Assembly: GCA_045643985.1 (NCBI GenBank)
Contig: JAZRGC010000087.1
Location: 1-41,010 of the forward strand
Source: Clostridia bacterium
GTDB lineage: Bacteria > Bacillota > Clostridia > Christensenellales > CAG-917
Reading direction: 5' to 3'
DNA length: 41,010 nucleotides
The notes under the pieces are model-generated. The model searched no databases. It was given only the letters and a program-made list of their open reading frames with translations, and was not told the origin of the DNA. How positions within the stretch are numbered: the stretch's first letter is position 1; each line of letters begins with the position of its first letter. A program made the translations under genes and the position numbers. Positions 437 to 40,087 of the stretch are shown in pieces.

Positions 437-883
437 CGTGATATTTCGCTTGCGCTCAGTGAAAGAATGCTTTGCCTTCGTGATAGACACGTAGTGTCGT
501 TATGGTTGAAAAAATTCGCACTCGCTCATTCGTTGGGTTCTCATACAAGCACTTTGTTGTTACGAAGTTACCAACGCGTAAGGAGTGAGCGACGGAATAG
601 CGATTTTTAATCGCGCCGCCACTCATTGCGAGAAAGCGAATACTGAGCACCAGACAAAAGTACGCCAGTCGCTGGTGGTCCACTCAAAATTCACCAAGCG
701 ACAAGTGGCATAATGAGTGGTATATCCTTAATGTGCGCGCGCTGTAAGGAACGAAGTGACGGAATAGCGTATTGCTACGGCACAGCCGTCAATCGCGTCG
801 AGTTGCCCCTTTGCGAGAGCAAATGAGGGGAAACACGTGAGGAAGGGGTGGTTATGCGCTTGATATGTTCGCACTCAGTAATG
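437..883. repeat. Copy 1 of an interspersed ~0.4-kb non-coding element (core inverted relative to copy 2)
   Basis: 437-464 is identical to 31247-31274 (CGTGATATTTCGCTTGCGCTCAGTGAAA). 471-875 aligns as the reverse complement of 31298-31614. The 82-nt block 661-742 differs from 31377-31458 at 2 positions by manual alignment. No ORF is conserved between the copies. Confidence 0.8.
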
Positions 884-5269: not shown

Positions 5270-5698
5270 ATGGAAAGGATCACCTCATTTTGCATCGACC
5301 ACAATATTCTCACCGAAGGCATATATCTCAACCGTGTAGATAAAGACGTATTCACCTATGATCTTCGCTTCAAAGCACCCAACAAAGGGGATTATTTGCA
5401 TACTGCAAGCATGCACACAATCGAACATTTGTTTGCAACAGTAGTGAGAAACAGTGATTTCAAGGACCAAGTTGTCTATTTTGGACCTATGGGATGTCGC
5501 ACAGGCTTCTATTTGCTCCTTTTTGATGCACCTGACGTGAACAAAGTGAAGGAAATGGTCATCGGTTGCCTTGAAAAATGCCTGCAACTCGACACAATCC
5601 CTGGCTCAAAGAAGATTGAATGTGGCAATTATCGCTCTCACAACCTTAAAAATGCCAAGGAAGAAATCGAAAAATATCTATCCATCCTAAAAGCCTAA
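5270..5698 (+). CDS. luxS: S-ribosylhomocysteine lyase (AI-2 synthase) LuxS
   Basis: MERITSFCIDHN... aligns with B. subtilis LuxS MPSVESFELDHN.... The metal-binding HTIEH motif and GCRTG are present. The start is chosen by that alignment; in-frame ATG 5258 and TTG 5246 are alternatives. Confidence 0.88.
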   Translation: MERITSFCIDHNILTEGIYLNRVDKDVFTYDLRFKAPNKGDYLHTASMHTIEHLFATVVRNSDFKDQVVYFGPMGCRTGFYLLLFDAPDVNKVKEMVIGCLEKCLQLDTIPGSKKIECGNYRSHNLKNAKEEIEKYLSILKA

Positions 5699-5859
5699 AA
5701 TATAATAAAAATCGGCTAAAATAGCCAAAAAACATAAAAAAACAAGGCAAATCAAGCCAAACAAGCGACAATCTATAAAAGCGCAAACCAACAAAAACAA
5801 ACCAACATAAGCGAAAAAAAAACAGCATCCAATTAAAAACAAACCAAAACCAAATTACC

Positions 5860-5888
5860 AAGTCAGGCACGAAGCTTGACTTTTTTAT
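5860..5888 (+). terminator. Rho-independent terminator 165 nt downstream of the luxS stop
   Basis: AAGTCAGG (5860-5867), CACGAA, GCTTGACTT (5874-5881), followed by TTTTTAT. Confidence 0.55.
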
Positions 5889-6326
5889 ATCCCAAAAACA
5901 ACCAAAATATAATAAAAACACCCTAAAAACAGTGGTTTATTATGATTTTCTATAATATTTTCATTGATTTTTCTATATTTCCCCATTTTTCAAACAATAG
6001 AAAAATTTCAAATTCCTGTCAAAACCAATTCCCTGAAAGACGATACTTTACTCATCAAATCCAAAATTAAAACAACAGAAAAACCATATCCTTGACATAA
6101 CAGCCAACAATTCCTTCAACCTGCAAGCAGCAGGCATGGTTGGTGCTGCCGAACCAAATCTACCCCAACTTCATCAAAACCCCTAGCATTGCACTTATCA
6201 TCTCATCCACATCCAACCCTTTGTCGCAATAATGAAGTTATGGCAATAAAAAACGGTAATAAAACTGCATAAATCACTGTCAATGTCAAAGTTTTTCTAT
6301 GATTCGCGAAACAAAAAATATAGAAA

Positions 6327-6342
6327 TGTTTCACGTAAAACA
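6327..6342. promoter_or_regulatory. parS site, 1 mismatch to the palindromic consensus
   Basis: TGTTTCACGTAAAACA versus TGTTTCACGTGAAACA. Confidence 0.6.
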
Positions 6343-7589
6343 TTACCCTATTATTTATAATAATCGGCAAATATAAATTGGTAGTTTCCTGCTCAAATGA
6401 TCGTTTTATATCGTTTGTGCCGAAAGGGATAAACTAAATCGCTCGCCAAGAAATAGGACGGTTGCACGGTGTGTTTGTTGACTATCAAACATGTATAGTG
6501 CTTTGATTGATTGTTGGTTGGGGTATTTTGATGCTTGTGTTTGTATTTGTGCTTGCCGAATTTCCCAAAACTACTTGCCTGTTGTTTGCAGTATGTCTAG
6601 GTGTGTTCATTGCTCCGTTTTGTTCTTTGCAAAAACAACAGAAAACTAAAAATTTCATAGAAACGATTTTTATCAAAAATTTCAATTTCTGTCTTTTTCA
6701 AGATTGACAGCTCAACATCAATCATCACTCCTGCTTTTACCCCTGAACGTTTGGTTGCAATTTACACAAAATCAAACGCTGTCATTTTAATACAGAACAA
6801 CTGCATTATGACTGCAATCTACCTAAAACATGTGCCAACGTGTGCCATAAACTCCTGCTTGTTTTACTCTCAAATTCATTGCAAAAACTAATGAAATCAT
6901 CCTTTTTGAATGTGCTACGGCACGAGTCAAATAGACAAACAAACATGGCGCAAGCATGCACAACCACAGCAGGCATACATACGCATGCATTATACACATG
7001 TAATCGCACATATATTGCGCGCTATAGCGCTTACGAGTAGCGTGAGTGTGTTGGCATGTTATGGGTGCAAATATGCGCAACTGAAAACCGATTGGATAAA
7101 TAAAAACCCGAGAAAAAGATTTTAGGGCGCAAACAAGAGTGTAAAACGAAATAAATAATGCGCTAAAAAGGCGTAAGACGCAGGAAAAATCCAAAGATGA
7201 ATAAGCGGGTGAAAAACAGTCTAAAACGCAGTAAAACGGCTCAAAATCGCTCAAAACACCATATCAACCAATATTTAAGGGGATGAAAATGCAAAACTCG
7301 ATCTAAAACAACCCTAAAACAGTCAAAAACCAATCTAAAACAAACAAAAAGAATGTGGGGTTCTGGGTATATGTGGGCAATGGAGTGCTTAGGCGGTGGA
7401 ATTAGTGTGCAAATCAAGCAGACAATAAGCGAAAAAAGAGAAATAAGGCGAGAAAAAACAATCCAAAAAGGGCAAAATATGGGCAAAAATACGGAAGAAA
7501 CGGTGGTGTAAACCATAAGTGATGAAAATCAGGACGAAAGAAGCCGAAATACAAGGGTGAATATGGGCGAAAAGTAGTCAAAAAACATA

Positions 7590-7605
7590 TGTTTCACGTG
7601 GAACA
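7590..7605. promoter_or_regulatory. parS site, exact match to B. subtilis parS
   Basis: TGTTTCACGTGGAACA is the reverse complement of TGTTCCACGTGAAACA (Spo0J/ParB binding site, consensus TGTTNCACGTGAAACA). Confidence 0.85.
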
Positions 7606-7622
7606 ATGAGAGAATGAGTGTG

Positions 7623-7638
7623 TGTTTCATGTGAAACC
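7623..7638. promoter_or_regulatory. parS-like site, 2 mismatches
   Basis: TGTTTCATGTGAAACC, starting 18 nt after the exact site ends. Confidence 0.45.
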
Positions 7639-7996
7639 AAAAACGGTCAAAATGCCCTAAAAATGCAGAAAAATAGGGGATTTTTAGTGATTTTTCGGTG
7701 AAAAATAGGTGGCAAAAATAATTTTTCAGTCTTTTCACATCTAAATTTAGACGCTGAAAAAATTGGTTTTTCATCATTGAAATTTTGAGCCTGTTTGTTT
7801 CGCAAATTTATAATAAAATGTATTTGTTTCACGGCTTTTTGTGATTTTTTGGAATATGGAATGTTTTCAGTGTGCTTTCTCCATGTAAAAAATGACGTGT
7901 TTTTGGTGGTTTTTTATAGATTTTTGGCCGAATACTGGATTTTTTATTGAAAAATATTGATTTTTTTATCAAATTCAAACAATTTTGCTCCTTTCC

Positions 7997-8140
7997 CCAT
8001 TGAAAATTTGCCGTTTTTTCTGTGTGAAACCTAATTTTTTCTGTAAAAATGGGCATAAATTTTATTTTTTGGCACAAAATTTATTTTTTACTTCTTCCAG
8101 CAAATCTCGCCAAACCCCTTCTTTTACCATTGAAAATTTG
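7997..8140. repeat. Two exact copies of CCATTGAAAATTTG 130 bp apart, each followed by a parS half-site
   Basis: CCATTGAAAATTTG occurs at 7997-8010 and 8127-8140, with a related CATTGAAATTTTG at 7775-7787. Each is followed within 11-16 nt by T-rich sequence and then GTGAAACC (8024-8031) or TGTTTCACG (8156-8164). Confidence 0.6.
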
Positions 8141-8155
8141 GTCGATTTTTGTCGA

Positions 8156-8171
8156 TGTTTCACGTGGTGAA
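8156..8171. promoter_or_regulatory. Degenerate parS-like site (one intact half-site)
   Basis: TGTTTCACGTGGTGAA. The left half and centre are intact and the right half has diverged. Confidence 0.3.
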
Positions 8172-8782
8172 AGTGCCAAAAATGGCAAAAAATTGGCTCG
8201 AAAAACTAGTTTAACTATCTATGATAGTTACTTTTTTCAATACATAGGAAAGAGAAAAGGCAAAGTTGAGTGAAATGAAACAAAAATAAGGTTGATTTTG
8301 ACTGTTCTGGATGGGTTTTGATTGTGAAACATTTGTAAAACTATGTCAAAATATGCTTTAAATGGTGGTAGTGTTGAAGAAAACTGAGAAAATTGACAAA
8401 AAATGAAGGGTTTTCCACTTTTTTATGGGTTTTATTGCTGAGTTGTAGGGTTTGTTGGATTGAAATTTTGGATTTGATTGTGTGTTTTTGTCGTGGTGGG
8501 TGGTATAAATGGCAAAAATTGTGTGCAGTGGGGTATGGTGGGATGTAAAAGAGTGAAAATTTGATAATTTTTTTTTTATCGTGACTTTGTGCGATTTTCT
8601 GCGATTTTAATGATTTTGAATGACTTATAGGGTTTGTTTGGTGCATATTGATGTATTTGATTGTTGCTGTTGGGATAGGACGTCTATGTATTGTTGTTTT
8701 AATCACTAAAAACCAAACTGTGTCTTGAAAATGGAGTGAATTTGTGGTAAAATGTTGTTCAGTAAGACATGGAGAAAAGGTT

Positions 8783-9316
8783 ATGTACGTGTGGATTGGC
8801 ATTGATGTCGATGATCAATATGGCAAAATCAAGGAAATAGCCAAAAAAATCGATGATGAACTATGCTTTAAGCATAGTTGTTTCACTTTGCCAATGCATA
8901 TATCCTTGAAAATATCCTTCAAAATTGACGAAAGTGACTACGAAAAGGTGTCAAAAACCATTTTGGACGTCTTTGAAAAGATAAAACCCTTTGAAATCGC
9001 CGTAAAAGGCATTCAAGACGAAGGGAACATCTGTTGGATAAGAATGCAGGATAACCCCTGTTTAAACGCTTTAAGCACGGAAATAAACCATATTCTTGGG
9101 GAAAAGCATGGTGTGCCCTTGCATGAATACGATTTGGACTTCAAATTTCACACGTCACTATTTTTGGATGATGACCATCAAAAAGTCCACCAAGCATATA
9201 TGAGGGTGAGGGATGTTGCCCTGCCTGAAAAACTCATAGCGCACCGTTTTGTCATAGGCACATCGAAGGACGGGCAACTGGGCACATACAAGGTTGTGTG
9301 CACTGTTGAAAGATGA
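8783..9316 (+). CDS. 2H phosphoesterase superfamily protein (LigT/YjcG-like)
   Basis: The start is moved to the ATG at 8783 (GGAG Shine-Dalgarno at 8771-8774). Two HxS/T motifs (PMHISL and KFHTSL) are spaced as in 2',5' RNA ligase/cyclic phosphodiesterase family proteins. Confidence 0.7.
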   Translation: MYVWIGIDVDDQYGKIKEIAKKIDDELCFKHSCFTLPMHISLKISFKIDESDYEKVSKTILDVFEKIKPFEIAVKGIQDEGNICWIRMQDNPCLNALSTEINHILGEKHGVPLHEYDLDFKFHTSLFLDDDHQKVHQAYMRVRDVALPEKLIAHRFVIGTSKDGQLGTYKVVCTVER

Positions 9317-9641
9317 AACAACACTCAGTGCAGTCAAAGTTGTTGACGATTGAGTGATGACAAAATCAGTGTTGATTAAATTGGAGATTGCCATCATCAA
9401 AATACGAAAATAGAAAAGTATAAAAAAATGTAATTTGACCAAATCAAAAGATTATCAGCACAAAATAAGCAAATAAACACTTGATATTGTCAAAATACTA
9501 ATTTTTGAGCATTACACATAAAACATCAATTTGCCATGGATGAAAATCCAAAACTGCCATCATTGAAAGTTGGGGTTGTGTGATAGAGTGTGTTGAGGTT
9601 GAATGTGTAAAATTGAGGCAAACAGAACTGTATATGAGAGA

Positions 9642-9670
9642 TTGACTATCTTCGTAAAATATGCCATAAT
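9642..9670 (+). promoter_or_regulatory. Putative sigma-A promoter for the 88-aa ORF
   Basis: TTGACT (9642-9647), 17 nt, CATAAT (9665-9670). Confidence 0.5.
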
Positions 9671-9727
9671 CATCAAGGGTGTGCGAAGAATTGCAAGACC
9701 TTATTTTAAGCACATGGGGGTTAAATC

Positions 9728-9994
9728 ATGAATAAAGCAGAAACAATTTTAAGTTGGTATTTTAGCAGGTTTCGTGAATTGCCGCCACCAACACCGACAA
9801 TAGGATATGATGACGAGATTTATCTTGATCTCATGATGAAGGCATTGCAGTTTGAAAAACCAATAACCGGGGAAGATTTAGAAAAAGCATTAGATGGGGC
9901 GGTTTATGATATTAAAATGCCTACGATGGACGAGATGGAGCAAACGACAAAACATCCTAAATTTACAGGGTTGAAAAACCCAAACGAAAACTAA
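9728..9994 (+). CDS. Hypothetical small protein (88 aa)
   Basis: GGGGG Shine-Dalgarno-like run upstream, its own promoter and a strong terminator downstream. I recognise no family. Confidence 0.55.
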   Translation: MNKAETILSWYFSRFRELPPPTPTIGYDDEIYLDLMMKALQFEKPITGEDLEKALDGAVYDIKMPTMDEMEQTTKHPKFTGLKNPNEN

Positions 9995-10016
9995 CAACTA
10001 AATAAACCCAACCGAA

Positions 10017-10043
10017 AGACCACCTGCAAGGGTGGTTTTTTTA
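10017..10043 (+). terminator. Rho-independent terminator
   Basis: ACCACC (10019-10024), TGCAAG, GGTGGT (10031-10036), followed by a T7 run. Confidence 0.7.
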
Positions 10044-10090
10044 TGCTCAAAATATACTCCTTCATTCTTTGAGTTTGGTGGAAGGATTTG

Positions 10091-10257
10091 GATGGATAAA
10101 GTAAAGTGAAACAAGGCGATATCCTATAAGGATATGCCGAGAAAAGATGAGTGATATATCGTGTTTTGTGGATAAAATGGTGTGAGAACTTGATTTACAG
10201 CCCCTATTTTGTGGAAAAAATGTAAAAATCGGGTGGAAAACCTATGGTTTATCCACA
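10091..10257. promoter_or_regulatory. DnaA-box cluster upstream of gyrB
   Basis: Perfect boxes are TGTGGATAA 10167-10175 and TTATCCACA 10249-10257. Imperfect boxes are TGTGGAAAA 10210-10218 (1 mismatch), GGTGGAAAA 10232-10240 and GATGGATAA 10091-10099 (2 mismatches each). A parS half-site GTGAAACA lies at 10106-10113. Confidence 0.65.
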
Positions 10258-10275
10258 AAAAAATCAAAAAAATGC

Positions 10276-10304
10276 TTGCATTTATATAAGTTTATAGTTA
10301 TAAT
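10276..10304 (+). promoter_or_regulatory. Putative gyrB promoter inside the AT-rich tract
   Basis: TTGCAT (10276-10281), 17 nt, TATAAT (10299-10304). The surrounding 10258-10346 is very AT-rich. Confidence 0.5.
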
Positions 10305-16628: not shown

Positions 16629-17034
16629 CGAATAACATCGTCAGGCGCTCTCATCTCATCCCTTATGTACGCCAGTACACTGCGGACTGACCTGACAGCA
16701 CCTTTCTTGTTCTTCATCTAAATATCCCAGTTTTTAAGAGTTCTAAAAAATGTTTAGAGCAAGAATAAGTTCAGTGTTTGCTATTTAGCGAACAACTTCA
16801 TTAGTCGTGCTGAAAAATGCAAAATCACAAAAACCATACTTAATAGTGTTTATTTGGTGCGATAAACTGCCGAAATGGTCATTTTAGAAAAATTATTGTA
16901 TTCTTATAATTGGGCGCAATATACAATATTGTAGGCAGGAAAATGTAAGTTGTGACTATATGAATATAGTATATGTGCACAACAAATAATGAGATATAAA
17001 CATATAAAAAAACAAATATAAAGGAGCAAAAATA

Positions 17035-29732: not shown

Positions 29733-31016
29733 ATGAAATATTTTGGCACAGACGGAATAAGAAACAAAGCATCAAAAGTGCTCCCTTTGGCACTGCCTCT
29801 TGGATTGCAACTATCACAAAAACACAAAAGGGTTGCAGTGGCAAGAGATCCAAGAATATCATCTTTTGACATTGAAAAAGAGTTGGTCAAAGGACTATTG
29901 TCGGGGGGCGCAGATGTGCTTCTTTGTGGAGTGATGCCAACACCTGCACTTGCCTACGTTGTCAAAGAGCAGAGCATTGATTGCGCAGTGATGATAACTG
30001 CATCACACAACCCACCAGAGTATAATGGGTTGAAAGTTATGGGTGCAGACGGCAAGTTGAGTGAAGATGAGGAAAGGGAAATTGATGAGGGGCTTTCTCA
30101 CGTGAGTCTGTCCAATTCCTGCGCAAGTGGCAAGGTGGATATTTTGAGCAGTAGTGTCAGGGATTACAAACGACACGTCATATCACTTTTTTCGCATATC
30201 GATATGTCAAAACTGGACAGACCCATTTATCTTGACACTGCCCACGGATGTTTTTCATATATGGCAAAAGATGTTTTTGAAACTTTGGGTGCAAATGTTG
30301 TGGCAGTCAACAATGACTATGATGGGGAAAAAATAAATGAAAATTGTGGCGCAACTGCCATGGACAAGTTCCAATTGCAAATCCCCGACAGGGCAATAGG
30401 CTTTGCTTTTGACGGAGATGGGGATAGGGTGCTTGCAGTGGTTGATGGCAAAATCTATGACGGCGACCAAATTCTGTACAATCTTGCCACGTTTTACAAA
30501 TTAAAAAATCGCAACAATATTGGTGTTGTTGGCACAATTATGACAGGTGGTGGAGTTGAAAAAGCCCTTGAAAAGCAAAAATTGCAACTTTTCAGGGCAG
30601 ATGTGGGGGACAAGTATGTTGCTGAGATGATGAAGGACAAGGGGATAATTCTTGGTGGGGAAAGGAGTGGACATATCATAATTGGTGACAAAACATCAAC
30701 AGGGGACGGACTTGTGACGGCACTTGCATTTTTGGAATGTTATCTTGATGGAAGCCTGAAAAAAGTGCGAGAATATCCAACTGAAAACTACAATTTAGAA
30801 TGCGAAAATCCAAAGAAGTTGTTTGAGAGTGTGGAGTTTCAAGAGAAAATATGCAAATTTGTGGCAAAAATAGGCAAAAGGGGCAGGGTTATAGCCCGTC
30901 CAAGTGGCACAGAAAGTGTAGTTAGATTGACTATTGAGCGATATGACAATGGTTTAGAATGCGAAAAACTTGTCAAAGAAATGATTTTTGACAAAAGTTT
31001 ACAAAAAACGGAATAA
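29733..31016 (+). CDS. glmM: Phosphoglucosamine mutase-like alpha-D-phosphohexomutase
   Basis: MKYFGTDGIRN, the active-site ITASHNP, the metal site FDGDGDR, GGERSGH and RPSGTES. At 427 aa it is slightly shorter than a typical GlmM. Confidence 0.75.
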   Translation: MKYFGTDGIRNKASKVLPLALPLGLQLSQKHKRVAVARDPRISSFDIEKELVKGLLSGGADVLLCGVMPTPALAYVVKEQSIDCAVMITASHNPPEYNGLKVMGADGKLSEDEEREIDEGLSHVSLSNSCASGKVDILSSSVRDYKRHVISLFSHIDMSKLDRPIYLDTAHGCFSYMAKDVFETLGANVVAVNNDYDGEKINENCGATAMDKFQLQIPDRAIGFAFDGDGDRVLAVVDGKIYDGDQILYNLATFYKLKNRNNIGVVGTIMTGGGVEKALEKQKLQLFRADVGDKYVAEMMKDKGIILGGERSGHIIIGDKTSTGDGLVTALAFLECYLDGSLKKVREYPTENYNLECENPKKLFESVEFQEKICKFVAKIGKRGRVIARPSGTESVVRLTIERYDNGLECEKLVKEMIFDKSLQKTE

Positions 31017-31041
31017 TTTTTTGAGAAAAAACCGTTTTTTG
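31005..31041 (+). terminator. Putative terminator overlapping the glmM stop
   Basis: AAAACGG (31005-31011) pairs with CCGTTTT (31032-31038), followed by Ts. The loop is large (20 nt). Confidence 0.4.
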
Positions 31042-31093: not shown

Positions 31094-31122
31094 TTGACAG
31101 AACAAATTGTCAATGTTAAGAT
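31094..31122 (+). promoter_or_regulatory. Near-consensus extended -10 promoter with no downstream ORF
   Basis: TTGACA (31094-31099), 17 nt, TAAGAT (31117-31122), with TG at 31114-31115. Confidence 0.6.
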
Positions 31123-31246
31123 ATGAGTGCAATCAAGTGATTGCCCAAAACAACTCATAATTTTCCCCCTTATCATAAGTAGAGAGTGCTGGCAGGTTTT
31201 GACCCCAGCACTCTTTACTTATTAGGTGAAAAGCAATCTGCGATTG

Positions 31247-31660
31247 CGTGATATTTCGCTTGCGCTCAGTGAAAAAATAATAACCACACTCAAATTAAGT
31301 GCGAACATATCAAGTGAATAACCACCCCTTCCTCATGTGTTTCCCCTCATTTGCTTGTGCAAAGGGGCAACACTCGGCGCGCGCACATTAAGGCTATACC
31401 ACTCATTATGCCACTTGTCGCTTGGTGAATTTTGAGTGGACCACCAGCGACTAGCGTACTTTCATCTGGTGCTCGGCACTCGATTTCTCGCCACCCTGTG
31501 GCTCGCGAAAGCAACTCCGTAACAAGTGAGTGCTTGTATAAGAACCCAACGAATGAGTGAGTGCGCATTTTTCAACCACAATGACACTCTGTGTCAATTC
31601 ATGCCGAAGGCAAATCATGACACGCAGTGTCAAATCATGGAGCGAAGGGAGAATTCGCTC
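31247..31660. repeat. Copy 2 of the interspersed ~0.4-kb non-coding element
   Basis: See copy 1. The 28-nt string at 31247-31274 is identical to 437-464, and the core 31298-31614 is the reverse complement of 471-875, with a 56-nt segment missing and a divergent central part. Confidence 0.8.
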
Positions 31661-31694
31661 AAAAAAAAGCACCCAAATGGGTGCTTTTCTTTTA
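31661..31694. terminator. Bidirectional rho-independent terminator (trxB and the candidate ncRNA)
   Basis: A8 run, AGCACCC (31668-31674), AAAT, GGGTGCT (31679-31685), then TTTTCTTTT. Confidence 0.8.
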
Positions 31695-31703
31695 CTTCAA
31701 GTT

Positions 31704-32600
31704 TTACATCAAATATTTTATTGCGCTTTCGGCGGCGATTGCTCCGTCTGCGCAGGCAGTGATGATTTGTCGTAGGGGTGTTTTTCGTATATCTCCTGCA
31801 ACAAACACACCTTTCACGTTGGTTGCCATATTTTCATCGGCAAGTATATAGCCATTTTCGGTTGCAAGTTTGTCTTGGAAAATGCGAGATGCAGGAGTTT
31901 GTCCCACTGCAACAAACATGCAAGCAACATCAATTGATGTTGACTCATTTGTTTTCAAGTTTTTCAAGTGCAGTTTTTCAAGGGGATTTCCTTCAAGGAT
32001 TTCGACTGCTGAATCCCACAAAATTTTCACTTTTGAACTGAGCAATTTTTCTTGAAGCACTTTGCTTGCACGGAGAGTATCTCTGCGATGAATGAGATAG
32101 ACTTCGCTTGCAAAATTGCTGAGATATAGGGCATCTTCAACAGCAGTATTGCCTCCGCCAACAACGGCAACAGGTCTATTTTTGAAAAATCTTCCATCGC
32201 AGGTTGCGCAGTAACTGACGCCATTGCCAATCAAATCTGCTTCTTTGGCAACACCCAATTTTCTTGCTTGTGCACCACAAGCGACAATCATTGTTTTTGC
32301 AGAAATGACACCACCATTCAAAGTGGTGACAGATTTTGTTTCTCCTTCCAAAACAACCTCTTCAACTTCGTCATAGACAAAAGTGACACCAAGGTTTTTG
32401 GCTTGTTCTTGCATATTGAAAGTGAGAGTGAAGCCGTCAATATTTTGTATGCCGGGGAAGTTTTCAATCTCCGGCGTGATGGCGGCTTGTCCACCAAAAG
32501 AGCGTCTTTCGACTATGACAGTTTTCAGTCCACCCCTTGCACCATATATGCCTGCTGTAAGCCCTGCAGGGCCTGCTCCTAAAATCAAAAGGTCGTACAT
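31704..32600 (-). CDS. trxB: Thioredoxin-disulfide reductase
   Basis: The start is moved to the ATG at 32600 (MYDLLILGAGPAGLTAG) with a GAGGTG Shine-Dalgarno. The redox-active CATCDG and the NADPH motif VVGGGNTAVE are present. Confidence 0.92.
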   Translation of the reverse strand: MYDLLILGAGPAGLTAGIYGARGGLKTVIVERRSFGGQAAITPEIENFPGIQNIDGFTLTFNMQEQAKNLGVTFVYDEVEEVVLEGETKSVTTLNGGVISAKTMIVACGAQARKLGVAKEADLIGNGVSYCATCDGRFFKNRPVAVVGGGNTAVEDALYLSNFASEVYLIHRRDTLRASKVLQEKLLSSKVKILWDSAVEILEGNPLEKLHLKNLKTNESTSIDVACMFVAVGQTPASRIFQDKLATENGYILADENMATNVKGVFVAGDIRKTPLRQIITACADGAIAAESAIKYLM

Positions 32601-32686
32601 ATTCACCTCAAAACCACAATTTGTTGAGTTTAGTATAAATAAAATGCCCACATTTAGTCAACTTTTTTCTTAAATGCAAAAAACTC

Positions 32687-37060: not shown

Positions 37061-38551
37061 ATGAAGCACTCTAAATTTGTTCTAAAGATAACATTGCTTG
37101 TCGTTGTGATGCTTGCTGTTGTTGCATTGGTCGCTTGTGATGATGCTGAGCCAGAGTCAGATATAAATGGTTTATATTATTGGCATTTGGATAAGTATGA
37201 AACAAATACAGAAATAGTGGAATCATATGGCATTTATGGAGATGCGCAACGATATAAGAGCTATATATATTTCATCAATGGAAGTGAAACACAGGAATAT
37301 GCAGACAACACTTGGGGCGTCCCAGTTAGAAATGCTATCGTAAGGGCAAGCTTCAACAGAGAGGGCAATTATAGCGACACTGTTGTTATCGTTCCTAAAA
37401 GAGTGTTGACAAAAAATGAGGGCGGCGGATTTGCAATCATATACGATTGGATTTACTATGCAACACCAAGCATAAACTCGGACGGCAGTGTTTCAACGAC
37501 ACATATTGACTTTATGCGCACAAGAATTGATGCAAAGGTGACAACACTTCTTGCAACAGTTGAAGGCAGAGATATAGACTATTATTTCACTCCCACAAGA
37601 GTGTTTTATAAGAGAGCAAGCCACTCAACGGTCAATTATATTGATTTCAGCGCAGTAGATGACACTCAAAGCTCAAATGATGGTGCAGGTATTGTTCATG
37701 ACGTTTTTCTAGAAAATGTTGAAACAGTCAAATGGATTTATTCTCAAATGAGCAAATACATTTACTACACTACAAAAACAGGTGATGTTGGAAGTAAATT
37801 CTACAATACGTTAAATCGTATTCTGCCTGATGGCACAGGTCAGGAAGTCCTCATAGATGAAAATTCCTATTCGTCTACAAAAGATGACGGAGATTCAAAT
37901 AAAAATACATTTCGAATCGACCTTATAGATTTGGAGCACTCAGGCAGTGAAGGTCATTTGATTTACACAAAGACAAGCCTTAATGATGGACAAGAAAAAT
38001 TGGAAGGGATTTTTGTTTGTGCAATTAAAGAATCGTATGAGCTTGATTTGGTCCATGAGCGGTGTCTATTAAAAGAAGAAGTTCTGAACGATGTAGAACT
38101 AAACTCTGTTTATTACTATACCAATGTGTATGGTGGAAGTGGCGATGCCATAGTCACTAAAAGTGACGGCAAGGTATATCTCATAGACATTAGGAACGAA
38201 GGAAATAGTGAAAAACTCCTTATCGACGAAGAAGTCAAATTTGTGTGTGTGACAAACAGCAATATATTGTATATTGATGCAGAAAACAGACTTTGGATAC
38301 AGTGTGATACATCGGGTTTTTTGAACGAAAGAAGAATTGTGCTGGACGACACAACAGATATTGACCTAAACAGAACAAAAATTGTGTCATATTACTTTGG
38401 CTGGTTTACGAGTGTAGATTATTTGATGTATGTTGATAAAAACACGGGTAAATCAAAAATAATCTCCCTTGAGGACTTGTTTAGTTGGTACTATAACGGA
38501 GATGGCGAAGAAATTTTTGAGGAAGTGACTTCGTACGAAATCGGTATTTAA
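37061..38551 (+). CDS. DUF5050-like lipoprotein, paralog 1
   Basis: Signal peptide with lipobox LVAC. It shares blocks with the next ORF: YFINGxxT, NTWGVPVRNAIVRA, VVIVPK, GGFAIxxDWIYYATP, THIDFMRTRIDA and NYIDFS. Confidence 0.8.
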   Translation: MKHSKFVLKITLLVVVMLAVVALVACDDAEPESDINGLYYWHLDKYETNTEIVESYGIYGDAQRYKSYIYFINGSETQEYADNTWGVPVRNAIVRASFNREGNYSDTVVIVPKRVLTKNEGGGFAIIYDWIYYATPSINSDGSVSTTHIDFMRTRIDAKVTTLLATVEGRDIDYYFTPTRVFYKRASHSTVNYIDFSAVDDTQSSNDGAGIVHDVFLENVETVKWIYSQMSKYIYYTTKTGDVGSKFYNTLNRILPDGTGQEVLIDENSYSSTKDDGDSNKNTFRIDLIDLEHSGSEGHLIYTKTSLNDGQEKLEGIFVCAIKESYELDLVHERCLLKEEVLNDVELNSVYYYTNVYGGSGDAIVTKSDGKVYLIDIRNEGNSEKLLIDEEVKFVCVTNSNILYIDAENRLWIQCDTSGFLNERRIVLDDTTDIDLNRTKIVSYYFGWFTSVDYLMYVDKNTGKSKIISLEDLFSWYYNGDGEEIFEEVTSYEIGI

Positions 38552-38659: not shown

Positions 38660-40087
38660 ATGAACAAAAAACTTTTTGTAAGCATCATCTCAGTGGTTGC
38701 ACTTGTTGCAGTTCTTGCAACACTTCTTGTCGGTTGCAATTCATTTGCATGGACATCAGTTGGCGGAGGCGAACCCGATGCAGACGTGATCTCAAATGGT
38801 GGATATTTTGTCAAGCAAGGCAAATATGTCTATTTCATCAATGGCTATGACACAGCAGAAGTCATCGACAACACTTTCGGTGTTCCTGTGAAGAACAGTA
38901 TCGTCAGAGCAGAACTTGTTGACGGCGAATACAAAAACTTTGTTGTTGTAGTCCCCAAGCAAGTATACAACAAAGATGCAAACGGTGGCTTTGCAATCTT
39001 TGGCGAATGGATCTACTATGCAACACCCAACAATGATGAAGACATTCACGGTCATGCATCAACCACACACACAGACTTTATGCGCACAAAGATTGATGGC
39101 TCAGCAACACAACTCATTGCAACCATCAACAGCCGTACAAGCCAATATCTCTTTACAGAATCACGTATTCTTGTCAGCAATGGCACATCAATCAACTATA
39201 TTGATTTCAGTGGCATGAAAGACAATGGCAGTTCAAGAAGCAAAGCAGGCGTCAAGACTGGCATCCTTGCAGAAAACGTTGAATCATTCCAATGGGATAT
39301 GAACAGTGACTATGTCTATTTCACCGAAACAGTCACAGGCGACACAAGTTACGAATTCTGCAACACTCTCAATGCAATCAAGATTGATGGCACAGAAGAT
39401 AAGAAAGTCCTTGCAGACAAGTTGACATATCTCAACGATGAAGAAAAGAAGAACTACACAGATTTCTTCTCAACAAAGGTCTTCAACTTTGCACTTGTTG
39501 ATATGGTTGTGGAAGCAGATGGCGCAACACTCTACTACACAAAGTCAACATACATCAACAGCCAAAAGGAAGTCCAAGGTTTGTTTGTCAATAAAGTTGC
39601 ATTTGGTGGTGACTTTGCAGTTGCAGGCGAAAAGCAAATCTCAAAGAACACAACAATCACAACAGTTTATGGCCTTAACTTTGCAGACGGCGCACTTGTG
39701 ACAATTGGCTCAAACATCTATCTTGCAAACTCAGCAGAAGGTGTCACAACAGACAACACTCCTATCATCGGCAGAGCAGCAACCATCCAAACCATCCACA
39801 ACGGAGTTGTCTATTACACAGACAGCACAGGTGGCAAGGTGTATGCAATCAACCTTGACGGCACAAACAATGAAAACGTTGTCTTTGAAGCAAAATTCAA
39901 CACCTCATGGCTCAACCTTGAAATCAATGCAGAAGGGGACAACCTTATGATCGCATTCTTCAACAGCGATTACTACAACTATCTCCACGTTGCAAACATT
40001 ATGAGTGACGAAGATAGCACAATGCTCGGCATCATCAACGATGCAGACAAGGAAGCCATCGAAAAGGCAGAAGAAGAAAATAAATAA
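38660..40087 (+). CDS. DUF5050-like lipoprotein, paralog 2
   Basis: Signal peptide with lipobox LVGC and the same conserved blocks (YFINGYDT, NTFGVPVKNSIVRA, VVVVPK, GGFAIFGEWIYYATP, THTDFMRTKIDG, NYIDFS). AGGAG Shine-Dalgarno. Confidence 0.8.
   Translation: MNKKLFVSIISVVALVAVLATLLVGCNSFAWTSVGGGEPDADVISNGGYFVKQGKYVYFINGYDTAEVIDNTFGVPVKNSIVRAELVDGEYKNFVVVVPKQVYNKDANGGFAIFGEWIYYATPNNDEDIHGHASTTHTDFMRTKIDGSATQLIATINSRTSQYLFTESRILVSNGTSINYIDFSGMKDNGSSRSKAGVKTGILAENVESFQWDMNSDYVYFTETVTGDTSYEFCNTLNAIKIDGTEDKKVLADKLTYLNDEEKKNYTDFFSTKVFNFALVDMVVEADGATLYYTKSTYINSQKEVQGLFVNKVAFGGDFAVAGEKQISKNTTITTVYGLNFADGALVTIGSNIYLANSAEGVTTDNTPIIGRAATIQTIHNGVVYYTDSTGGKVYAINLDGTNNENVVFEAKFNTSWLNLEINAEGDNLMIAFFNSDYYNYLHVANIMSDEDSTMLGIINDADKEAIEKAEEENK

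Follow-up and report, generated by a model that had tools for sequence, protein, structure and literature searches.

The BIME/REP sequences of enterobacteria and the BOX elements of Streptococcus pneumoniae are multi-copy, non-coding mosaics of small structured units, which lie in intergenic regions 3′ of genes and vary between strains. Class C group II introns integrate in sense orientation directly behind intrinsic terminators, and HEARO RNA was a multi-copy orphan before it was recognized as the omega-RNA of IscB/IsrB. The Gut-1 motif (RF01706) was reported from human gut metagenomes only, with no organism assigned to it, and the paper describing it assigns it no function (Weinberg et al. 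2010, PMC2864571). Here we analyse a stretch of 41,010 nt from a Clostridia bacterium (contig JAZRGC010000087.1, assembly GCA_045643985.1; hereafter the window), which contains two copies of a repeat comparable in part with each of these systems. Its core is a multi-helix fold of 270–310 nt that is common to all copies, has no coding capacity and forms on one strand only. We consider it, with a probability of about 0.5, to be a non-coding, non-autonomous mobile element of this size (ca. 270–310 nt), whose movement would be strand-specific and structure-dependent.

The folding strand of the core, designated S1, is the + strand in copy 1 and the − strand in copy 2; S2 is the opposite strand. The cores and their 22-mers are situated as follows.

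515–877, + strand (S1): core copy 1, decayed; E 2.7e-27 with the family profile (nhmmer)
827–848, + strand: 22-mer of copy 1, GGGGAAACACGTGAGGAAGGGG, used as scan pattern; 3′ strand of the closing helix and purine-rich tail
31296–31566, − strand (S1): core copy 2, intact; 156.7 bits with the family profile (nhmmer)
31325–31346, − strand: 22-mer of copy 2, GGGGAAACACATGAGGAAGGGG

The initial annotation, made from the window alone, had described a non-coding interspersed repeat in the dnaN-dnaA and glmM-trxB spacers, with its core inverted between them, and the flanking genes, the inversion and the non-coding nature were all borne out. A repeat search of the window gave four pairs of inverted arms with 84–93 % identity (628–742/31377–31491, 115 nt, 93 %; 802–875/31298–31371, 74 nt, 92 %; 510–578/31504–31572, 69 nt, 84 %; and 483–513/31568–31598), and the pairwise alignment shows the indels. 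This alignment also contains, as had been reported, an 82-nt block with 2 mismatches. The hairpin described as keeping its stem and changing its loop is real (CCCCTTTGC-GAGA/ACAA-GCAAA-TGA-GGGG), and so is the 56-nt segment unique to copy 1, whose position we revise to 745–800. The reported divergence in the centre of copy 1 is accounted for by a second insertion (579–628) that replaces a conserved hairpin. The ca. 20-nt module counted four times in copy 1 stands only for two occurrences, which are the 5′ start and the 3′ end of the core (TTCGCACTCA); of the others, one is a 28-mer dealt with below and one (608–630) is the edge of an insertion. No open reading frame (ORF) is common to both copies, in agreement with the earlier reading of the overlapping ORFs as not conserved.

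Homology searches were run with nhmmer profiles. A profile built exclusively from copies of other species recovered copy 2 at 31320–31559 (−; E 3.4e-21; model positions 4–283 of 306) and copy 1 at 690–849 (+; E 4.9e-9), with no third match anywhere in the 41-kb window. Since a profile without the copies of this species finds copies 1 and 2 alone, chance similarity is excluded.

The family extends well beyond the window. A scan of one genome per GTDB species with the most conserved 22-mer of the core (GGGGAAACACNTGAGGAAGGGG, 827–848 in the window), which required an exact match and left copies varying in the 22-mer outside the sample, gave matches in at least 116 stretches; these come from uncultured gut or rumen Clostridia, in at least 27 assemblies. 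The repeat is thus not limited to two copies. Up to 11 copies with the exact motif occur, among the matches listed, in one fragmentary metagenome-assembled genome (MAG), and in a single metagenome assembly a 29-mer specific to the window subtype matched eight separate loci. Of the first 80 matches of the 22-mer, at least 33 lie within 250 nt of a contig end, as is usual for repeats at which assemblies break. At loci L023 and L039, from two UBA MAGs, runs of N are located exactly within the element; their simplest explanation is that the repeat caused gaps in scaffolding. A third copy from the same species is situated between dnaA and recF (L001:7593–7962), L001 being a contig from another sample that encodes an identical DnaN. 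Some assemblies are mislabelled, for instance as 'Bacteroidaceae', and one of these (CAYIYN01) encodes a DnaN 79 % identical to that of the window; the names of the DnaN homologues place the organism of the window near Acutalibacteraceae, and we take the hosts to be a clade of uncultured gut Clostridia related to that family.

Three subtypes of the core are told apart chiefly by their 3′-domain hairpins, with subtype II comprising the window copies, L031, L038 and the JAEIGA loci. In Rfam, no match to the core was found at gathering thresholds in the whole window and 18 loci, and nothing relevant appeared even at E≤10 for copy 1, copy 2 and one type I copy, other than weak Gut-1 scores; the exclusion of several classical RNAs in the initial annotation therefore holds. 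A BLAST search with copy 2 gave no match in plasmid and phage collections, and the 22-mer had 0 matches in IMG/VR. We found no description of the family in Rfam 15 or the literature searched, although papers beyond that literature could hold one.

Read along S1, the conserved blocks of the core are a 5′ region (CGCACTCACTCATTCG..CTTATACAAGCAC); GAGCCGCAAGGCGGCGAG-AAAGCGAG-GCCGAGC; AGTAC, followed by a variable hairpin; GTGGCATAA, followed by a hairpin; GCGAG-GCCGAGTGTTGCCCC, with one or two variable hairpins next; and, last, GGGGAAACACGTGAGGAAGGGG. The 22-mer pairs with an equally invariant GCCGAGUGUUGCCCC, CC..GUGU..CCCC facing GGGG..ACAC..GG. In the alignment of type I copies (A5; 29 copies, none from this species), 94.2 % of the cells in predicted pairs were paired, against 37–59 % in slid controls, and 15 pairs were changed on both sides (slid, 4–6), amounting to 81 such cells (slid, 9–14). 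The alignment of types II and III (A6; 19 copies, including copy 2) gave 97.6 % (slid, 31–54 %), with 9 pairs and 39 cells changed on both sides. For A5 and A6 alike, 0 of 500 shuffles match the observed values, counts that are not probabilities because the folds derive from the alignments in which pairs were counted and the sequences are related. Compensatory changes include GCCGC/GCGGC, GUCGC/GCGAC, GGCGC/GCGCC, AUCGC/GCGAU and GCCAC/GUGGC, as well as UGCGCC/GGCGCA, UGUGCC/GGCACA, CGUGG/CCACG and ACGGGC/GCCCGU. Copy 2 is a row in alignments A4 and A6, and its fold is supported in the latter. Three other approaches gave nothing usable: folds of single sequences by minimum free energy were uninformative (z-scores −1.2 to −2.1), an initial MAFFT alignment of copies with their flanks could not be used, and an all-against-all screen for column covariation was swamped by subfamily structure.

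The fold belongs to S1 alone. RNAalifold energies were −111.6 (S1) and −99.7 (S2) for type I, and −104.3 and −91.4 for types II/III, S1 being better by 12–13 kcal/mol in both sets; additionally, G·U cells outnumber A·C cells in the S1 structures by 256 to 40 and by 112 to 20, about 6 to 1. As G·T is the most stable mismatch in DNA, this strand asymmetry cannot tell RNA from single-stranded DNA.

The ends of the core are direct and not inverted, TTCGCACTCA being found at the 5′ start and at the 3′ end, and since the 5′ start of the element recurs at its 3′ end as GTTCGCACTCA, there is a terminal redundancy of ca. 10 nt. Flanks differ among the copies inspected, in which neither terminal inverted repeats nor target-site duplications were found, so that the proposal of ends like those of a miniature inverted-repeat transposable element (MITE) is not supported. 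Several copies are truncated at the 5′ side and begin at ACAAGCAC (L063, L072, L132, L133), and others are in tandem (L074, L086, L121, L133). Tandem cores (in these four loci, L024 and L075) are joined by a linker of ca. 55 nt (GAAATTGCATTTAGAGT-N-ACTCTTGTAGAGGAAGAA), and some cores at tandem loci precede partial second units or a repeat of the 3′ motif alone. A coding reading, with translation starting after the 3′ motif GAGGAAGGGG, was rejected because the start codons at that position are not conserved between copies.

Both copies are accompanied by arrays of small hairpins.

414–513, + strand: hairpin array 5′ of copy 1, which holds the 28-mer; 7-nt spacers ATGATAT, GTGATAT, GTGAAAG, GTGATAG and GTTATGG
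437–464, + strand: 28-mer CGTGATATTTCGCTTGCGCTCAGTGAAA, one unit of the array
31225–31278, + strand: short hairpin array with the second 28-mer (31247–31274), on the 3′ side of copy 2 and antisense to S1
31567–31655, − strand: hairpin array 5′ of copy 2, with GACACnnnGTGTC and GCCttcGGC hairpins; spacers ATGATTT, ATGAATT and ATTGTGG

The repeat search confirmed that the 28-mer is identical and direct at 437–464 and 31247–31274, with similarity reaching 37 nt at 95 % and 52 nt at 85 %. The short array also includes the hairpin GCAATCTGCGATTGC followed by GTGATAT. Array hairpins covary, their stems varying while pairing is kept (GACACgtaGTGTC, GACACagaGTGTC, GAAGGCttcGCCTTC, GCCttcGGC), and their spacers follow (G/A)TGAWAT. 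Copy 2 lies between two arrays that face each other and copy 1 has a single array, at its 5′ side; this placement explains how a direct 28-mer can accompany an inverted core. The 28-mer resembles the 3′ end of the core (GATATGTTCGCA-CTCAGT), yet it belongs to an array module that is separate from the core and can lie on either side of it, and is not a terminal repeat of the element as had been suggested.

The arrays are the part of the locus that approaches a described motif. The Gut-1 model scored 26.5 bits at 414–491 (E 0.008), 21.7 bits at 31607–31693 and 17.0 bits at 31210–31280, all below the gathering score of 50, and the window arrays do show the Gut-1 layout of at least three short hairpins with GUGAAAU-like heptamer spacers. 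True matches occur in genomes that carry the core, with 56.2 bits in L063 and 54.2 bits in L045 (L063:1540–1770 and L045:100–260, in MAGs from roe-deer caecum and another gut sample). The Gut-1 match of L063 is one half of a palindromic double array, with GTTATAT-spaced hairpins, a centre and ATATAAC-spaced hairpins, situated between two terminators.

Further small modules interrupt copy 1 or lie next to it.

579–628, + strand: E-like module, insertion 1 (TAAGGAGTGAGCGACGGAATAGCG and a hairpin); replaces the P2 hairpin; not in L001a, L001b or copy 2
745–800, + strand: E-module, insertion 2 (56 nt: TAAGGAACGAAGTGACGGAATAGCG-hairpin-CGCGTCG); not in copy 2 or L001a
925–1048, − strand: T-module, a dispersed repeat directly after the dnaN stop codon; 16–18 BLAST matches in other genomes

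Besides its two insertions and the replacement of the P2 hairpin, copy 1 has the GAGTGCCGAG block, with the GCCGAG motif, mutated to GAATACTGAG. The E-module has the layout TAAGGA-N6-GACGGAATAGCG-stem-loop-CGCGTCG, with GACGGAATAGCG recurring in other genomes, and its insertion site in the core is GC(C/T)G^AG. It is found at the same core site in L020, L036, L038, L089, L093, L119 and L132, as free-standing copies in L023 and L082, and also alone inside the T-module; L072 is likewise among the genomes carrying the 56-nt module. The T-module has a long central hairpin, a T run and ends resembling terminal inverted repeats (AAAACNGCGCTATTTGGCGAATAAC / ..CCAAATAGCGCGGTTTT), and its hairpin and T run probably terminate dnaN. 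There is a partial copy of it at 16703–16749, and its relatives elsewhere are often directly 5′ of a core.

Alleles of the dnaN-dnaA locus show that this decay took place between strains. L001 has an intact allele (L001a) together with an identical DnaN, and in L002, again with an identical DnaN, the allele is the exact product of a deletion between two E copies and was produced by recombination between them. Relatives with 97 and 92 % DnaN identity carry other sets of modules, and their contigs break there; the spacer after dnaN is a hot spot for these modules, as seen in L127 and L128. Their arrays (L127:4600–4965 and L128:3055–3150, respectively) have ATTTCAT / GTGAATT spacers and occur in both orientations. 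A more distant relative (L007, 83 % DnaN identity) has a plain dnaN-dnaA spacer of 284 nt without modules. For copy 2, exact look-ups of the TrxB and GlmM of the window, in search of strain variants, returned no record.

The genes and the terminator that flank the two copies are the following.

1–262, − strand: N-terminus of DnaA
1049–2149, − strand: DnaN
29733–31016, + strand: phosphoglucosamine-mutase-type protein
31662–31693, bidirectional: intrinsic terminator of trxB; the array and core of copy 2 begin just downstream on the trxB strand
31704–32651, − strand: thioredoxin-reductase-type protein

Across the family, the gene upstream of S1 is co-oriented with it in 39 cases and opposed in 9, and the gene downstream is in the same orientation in 40 and in the opposite one in 52. 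That the bias affects the upstream gene alone indicates that the 5′ side of S1 is tied to the 3′ ends of genes. For the same reason a replication-strand cause of the orientation was rejected; it is also contradicted by the three copies of this species, which differ in their orientation to the replication strand. In many copies the start lies 0–10 nt past a T run that belongs either to a terminator or to a repeat end resembling one, and many copies have a further terminator on their 3′ side. The core is found in either orientation beside the same flanking modules (in the window and in L129, the trxB spacer of a relative, where its orientation relative to trxB and its array is the opposite one). 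For S1, no sigma-70-like promoter was detected at copy 1 or copy 2; at copy 2, S1 is preceded by the strong trxB terminator, and the sole strong promoters (30988–31017 and 31094–31122) drive the antisense strand. Neither the downstream ORFs inspected, which are unrelated housekeeping genes, nor a clustering of ca. 500 neighboring ORFs revealed a recurrent protein family beside the copies. A motif scan of 861 kb of loci, ca. 8 kb around each copy, found no IS200 Y1, IscB PLMP or HNH motif, and the reverse transcriptase YADD motif gave spurious matches only.

A placement of this kind could also be that of a cis-acting element of 3′ untranslated regions or terminators, insulating against read-through or blocking 3′ exonucleases and thereby stabilizing the upstream mRNA, as in REP/BIME. 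The strong bias for sites downstream of a co-oriented gene (39 vs 9), the terminators that are common on both sides, the mosaic with other 3′-region modules, including the terminator-bearing T-module, and the conservation of some positions between species would all agree with such a role. However, a simple stabilizer needs neither a 280-nt fold nor a 22-mer unchanged across at least 27 assemblies (the 22-mer being itself the scan pattern), and little transcript should reach copies that are behind terminators. Moreover, copy 1 points away from any upstream co-oriented gene, and alleles are lost or broken between strains without visible constraint. We therefore regard a cis-acting role as unlikely.

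The reading to which we give about even odds, that of a mobile element, proposes that S1 must fold into the conserved structure and that this fold, as single-stranded DNA or as RNA, would be recognized by an enzyme encoded elsewhere, possibly an HUH-type single-strand transposase or a reverse transcriptase. Insertion would take place in fixed orientation just 3′ of a hairpin and T-tract, as provided by terminators, terminator-like repeat ends and hairpin arrays. The element would have spread, and would still be turning over, in this clade of gut Clostridia, with copy 2 as an intact member after the trxB terminator and copy 1 as one that decays in the dnaN-dnaA spacer, where two insertions of a second, putatively mobile hairpin module of 56 nt have broken it. 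Mobility fits the copy number, the assembly breaks, the turnover at strain level and the nesting with small modules, and likewise the lack of terminal inverted repeats, target-site duplications, promoter and gene, the fold on one strand and the bias toward terminators. The truncated copies, the tandem copies and the redundancy of ca. 10 nt would then be signs of copying errors.

Several observations weigh against mobility. No autonomous partner or candidate enzyme was found among the neighboring ORFs or in the 861-kb motif scan, terminal inverted repeats and target-site duplications were not seen, and there is no clean pair of empty and filled sites. In some cases the element occupies the same position in different species-level genomes, which suggests retention or hot spots: L029 and L084 have it upstream of minD, and L092, L106 and L114 have it upstream of one membrane-protein gene. 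The sample of at least 116 stretches is biased by the exact 22-mer pattern, MAG binning and labels are unreliable, and the structures were predicted on the same alignments, of related sequences, that served for the pair counts. Mobility also leaves unexplained that the whole interior is structurally conserved, and not the ends alone; a transposase substrate should not need a conserved interior, and this points to an RNA function.

The family could accordingly consist of genes for a large functional RNA that acts with a protein encoded elsewhere, as an omega-RNA-like guide or scaffold or in another ribonucleoprotein, with its spread being secondary. The ca. 280-nt fold covaries across the three subtypes, in which homologous hairpins differ in sequence, and the E-module occupies the same internal-loop position in many genomes, much like an optional RNA domain. 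A sense position behind host genes without an own promoter is what would be expected of an RNA that needs read-through transcription, and GAGGAAGGGG, the purine-rich motif at the 3′ side, could descend from the ribosome-binding site of a downstream gene since lost; a conserved 3′ motif similar to a Shine-Dalgarno sequence would suit an omega-RNA-like history. Nevertheless, there is no HEARO or other relevant Rfam match even at E≤10, and no IscB, IsrB, TnpB or recurrent gene beside the ca. 120 copies, among the matches listed. Most copies are directly behind strong terminators, copy 1 decays freely between strains, and at copy 2 strong promoters drive the antisense strand only. An RNA gene family thus seems to us possible but tentative. 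We give a slightly lower probability to the most far-reaching proposal, namely that the core represents a novel kind of large structured RNA, or of folded single-stranded DNA, from an unrecognized mobile system of gut Clostridia that targets the 3′ side of terminators, with the Gut-1 arrays and the 56-nt hairpin that inserts at GCCG^AG as accessory modules and a protein partner encoded elsewhere, as HEARO has in IscB.

The initial annotation had considered an iteron-bearing, protein-binding module and a substrate for recombinational inversion that brackets the origin region; in an origin-related reading, the copies would be responsible, through inversion, for the unusual dnaN-dnaA arrangement. 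The probable oriC indeed lies between two inverted copies of ca. 90 % identity, the left one ca. 1.5 kb and the right one ca. 29 kb away; inverted copies also enclose dnaA in the same species, and array units recur with a period of ca. 21 nt. Inversion between the two window copies is possible in principle. The origin itself is probably upstream of dnaN, as indicated by clusters of DnaA-box-like 9-mers upstream of dnaN (2304–2388) and gyrB (10167–10257) together with the change of sign of the AT skew near 2 kb; these clusters are outside the element, and there is also a perfect DnaA box upstream of dnaA (280–288). Nearly all of the ca. 120 other copies, among the matches listed, adjoin unrelated housekeeping genes and are not confined to origins in the way expected of an iteron or DnaA-box module with initiator-bound direct repeats; the array hairpins covary and the core folds on one strand only. 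The order dnaN-dnaA is common to the relatives L001, L002 and L007, the last of which has no element in the spacer, and L001 runs collinear with the window between luxS and dnaA and extends past the window end into recF. The origin reading is thus already largely refuted and we hold it to be very improbable; the copies would have no role at the origin, and a false lead is removed, because the repeats explain neither the dnaN-dnaA arrangement nor origin function.

Other features of the window were observed in passing. Between the glmM-type gene and the short array of copy 2 there is a unit resembling a small RNA gene (31094–31225, +), in which a strong promoter (TTGACA-17-TAAGAT plus TG) is combined with a hairpin at the 5′ side, the single-stranded stretch CUCAUAAUUUUCCCCCUUAUCAUA and, at 31183–31215, a hairpin resembling a terminator; it had no Rfam match. 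The same seed and a promoter occur beside another core in L070 (about 5600–5770), and in type I cores the conserved 3′ motif contains AAGGGGGAAA, to which the seed UUUCCCCCUU is complementary. A region of ca. 4.6 kb (5700–10300) has low coding density, with few ORFs of more than 100 aa, a GC content of ca. 0.35 and no Rfam or tRNA match, and contains an ORF for a 2′-5′ RNA ligase-like protein (8744–9316). Two adjacent paralogous genes (37061–38551 and 38660–40087) form direct repeats of ca. 71 % identity.

The core is among the most repeated sequences of a common uncultured gut clade, yet it is outside Rfam and the annotated plasmid and phage collections that were searched, and it fragments the assemblies of its host genomes. 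The present analysis also places the orphan Gut-1 motif for the first time in a context of organisms, genomes and structure. Should the element prove mobile, it would stand for a mechanism that is strand-specific, targets terminators and lacks any known enzyme; should it be a functional RNA, it would constitute a new class of large RNAs.

Comparison with described systems places the family as follows. Like MITEs, the element is small, non-coding, multi-copy, assembly-breaking, polymorphic between alleles and prone to nested insertions, but it has no terminal inverted repeats or target-site duplications, folds on one strand and has a deeply conserved, covarying interior. With class C group II introns it shares a fixed orientation directly downstream of terminator hairpins; however, the Rfam results contained no group II family, no reverse transcriptase is nearby, and reading of the sequences revealed neither a domain V nor a GUGYG 5′ end, the sole GAGCC hairpin of the core having 5 bp and a loop of 3–4 nt. 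We know of no group II intron as small as ca. 280 nt. HEARO, the omega-RNA of IscB/IsrB, and PATEs (ORF-less IS200/IS605 elements) are likewise large, structured and present in many copies, without inverted repeats or target duplications, with one acting strand and with insertion beside a short motif. In contrast to them, the element has neither a HEARO match nor an IscB, IsrB, TnpB or TnpA gene near the sampled copies, such as the IscB/IsrB gene that would adjoin the RNA 3′ end; its strand asymmetry, its absence of inverted repeats and target-site duplications and its frequent T-run 5′ flanks would fit an IS200/IS605-type element, but no fixed tetra- or pentanucleotide or matching end hairpins could be defined. 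The window arrays resemble Gut-1 in their small hairpins, covarying stems and 7-nt (G/A)UGAWAU spacer; they differ in that the model spans only ca. 77 nt of array, and not the 280-nt core, and in that true matches stand alone behind terminators as palindromic double arrays. Finally, BIME/REP and BOX are equally multi-copy, non-coding, modular and 3′ intergenic, with a module content that varies between strains, but they are much smaller than the core, whose conserved multi-helix fold includes long-range pairs and which spans many species-level genomes instead of a single species. The family is of a kind already known, that of interspersed, modular, structured intergenic repeats, from whose known members it departs in its size, in the deep covariation of its fold across species, in its one-strand character and in its orientation next to terminators.

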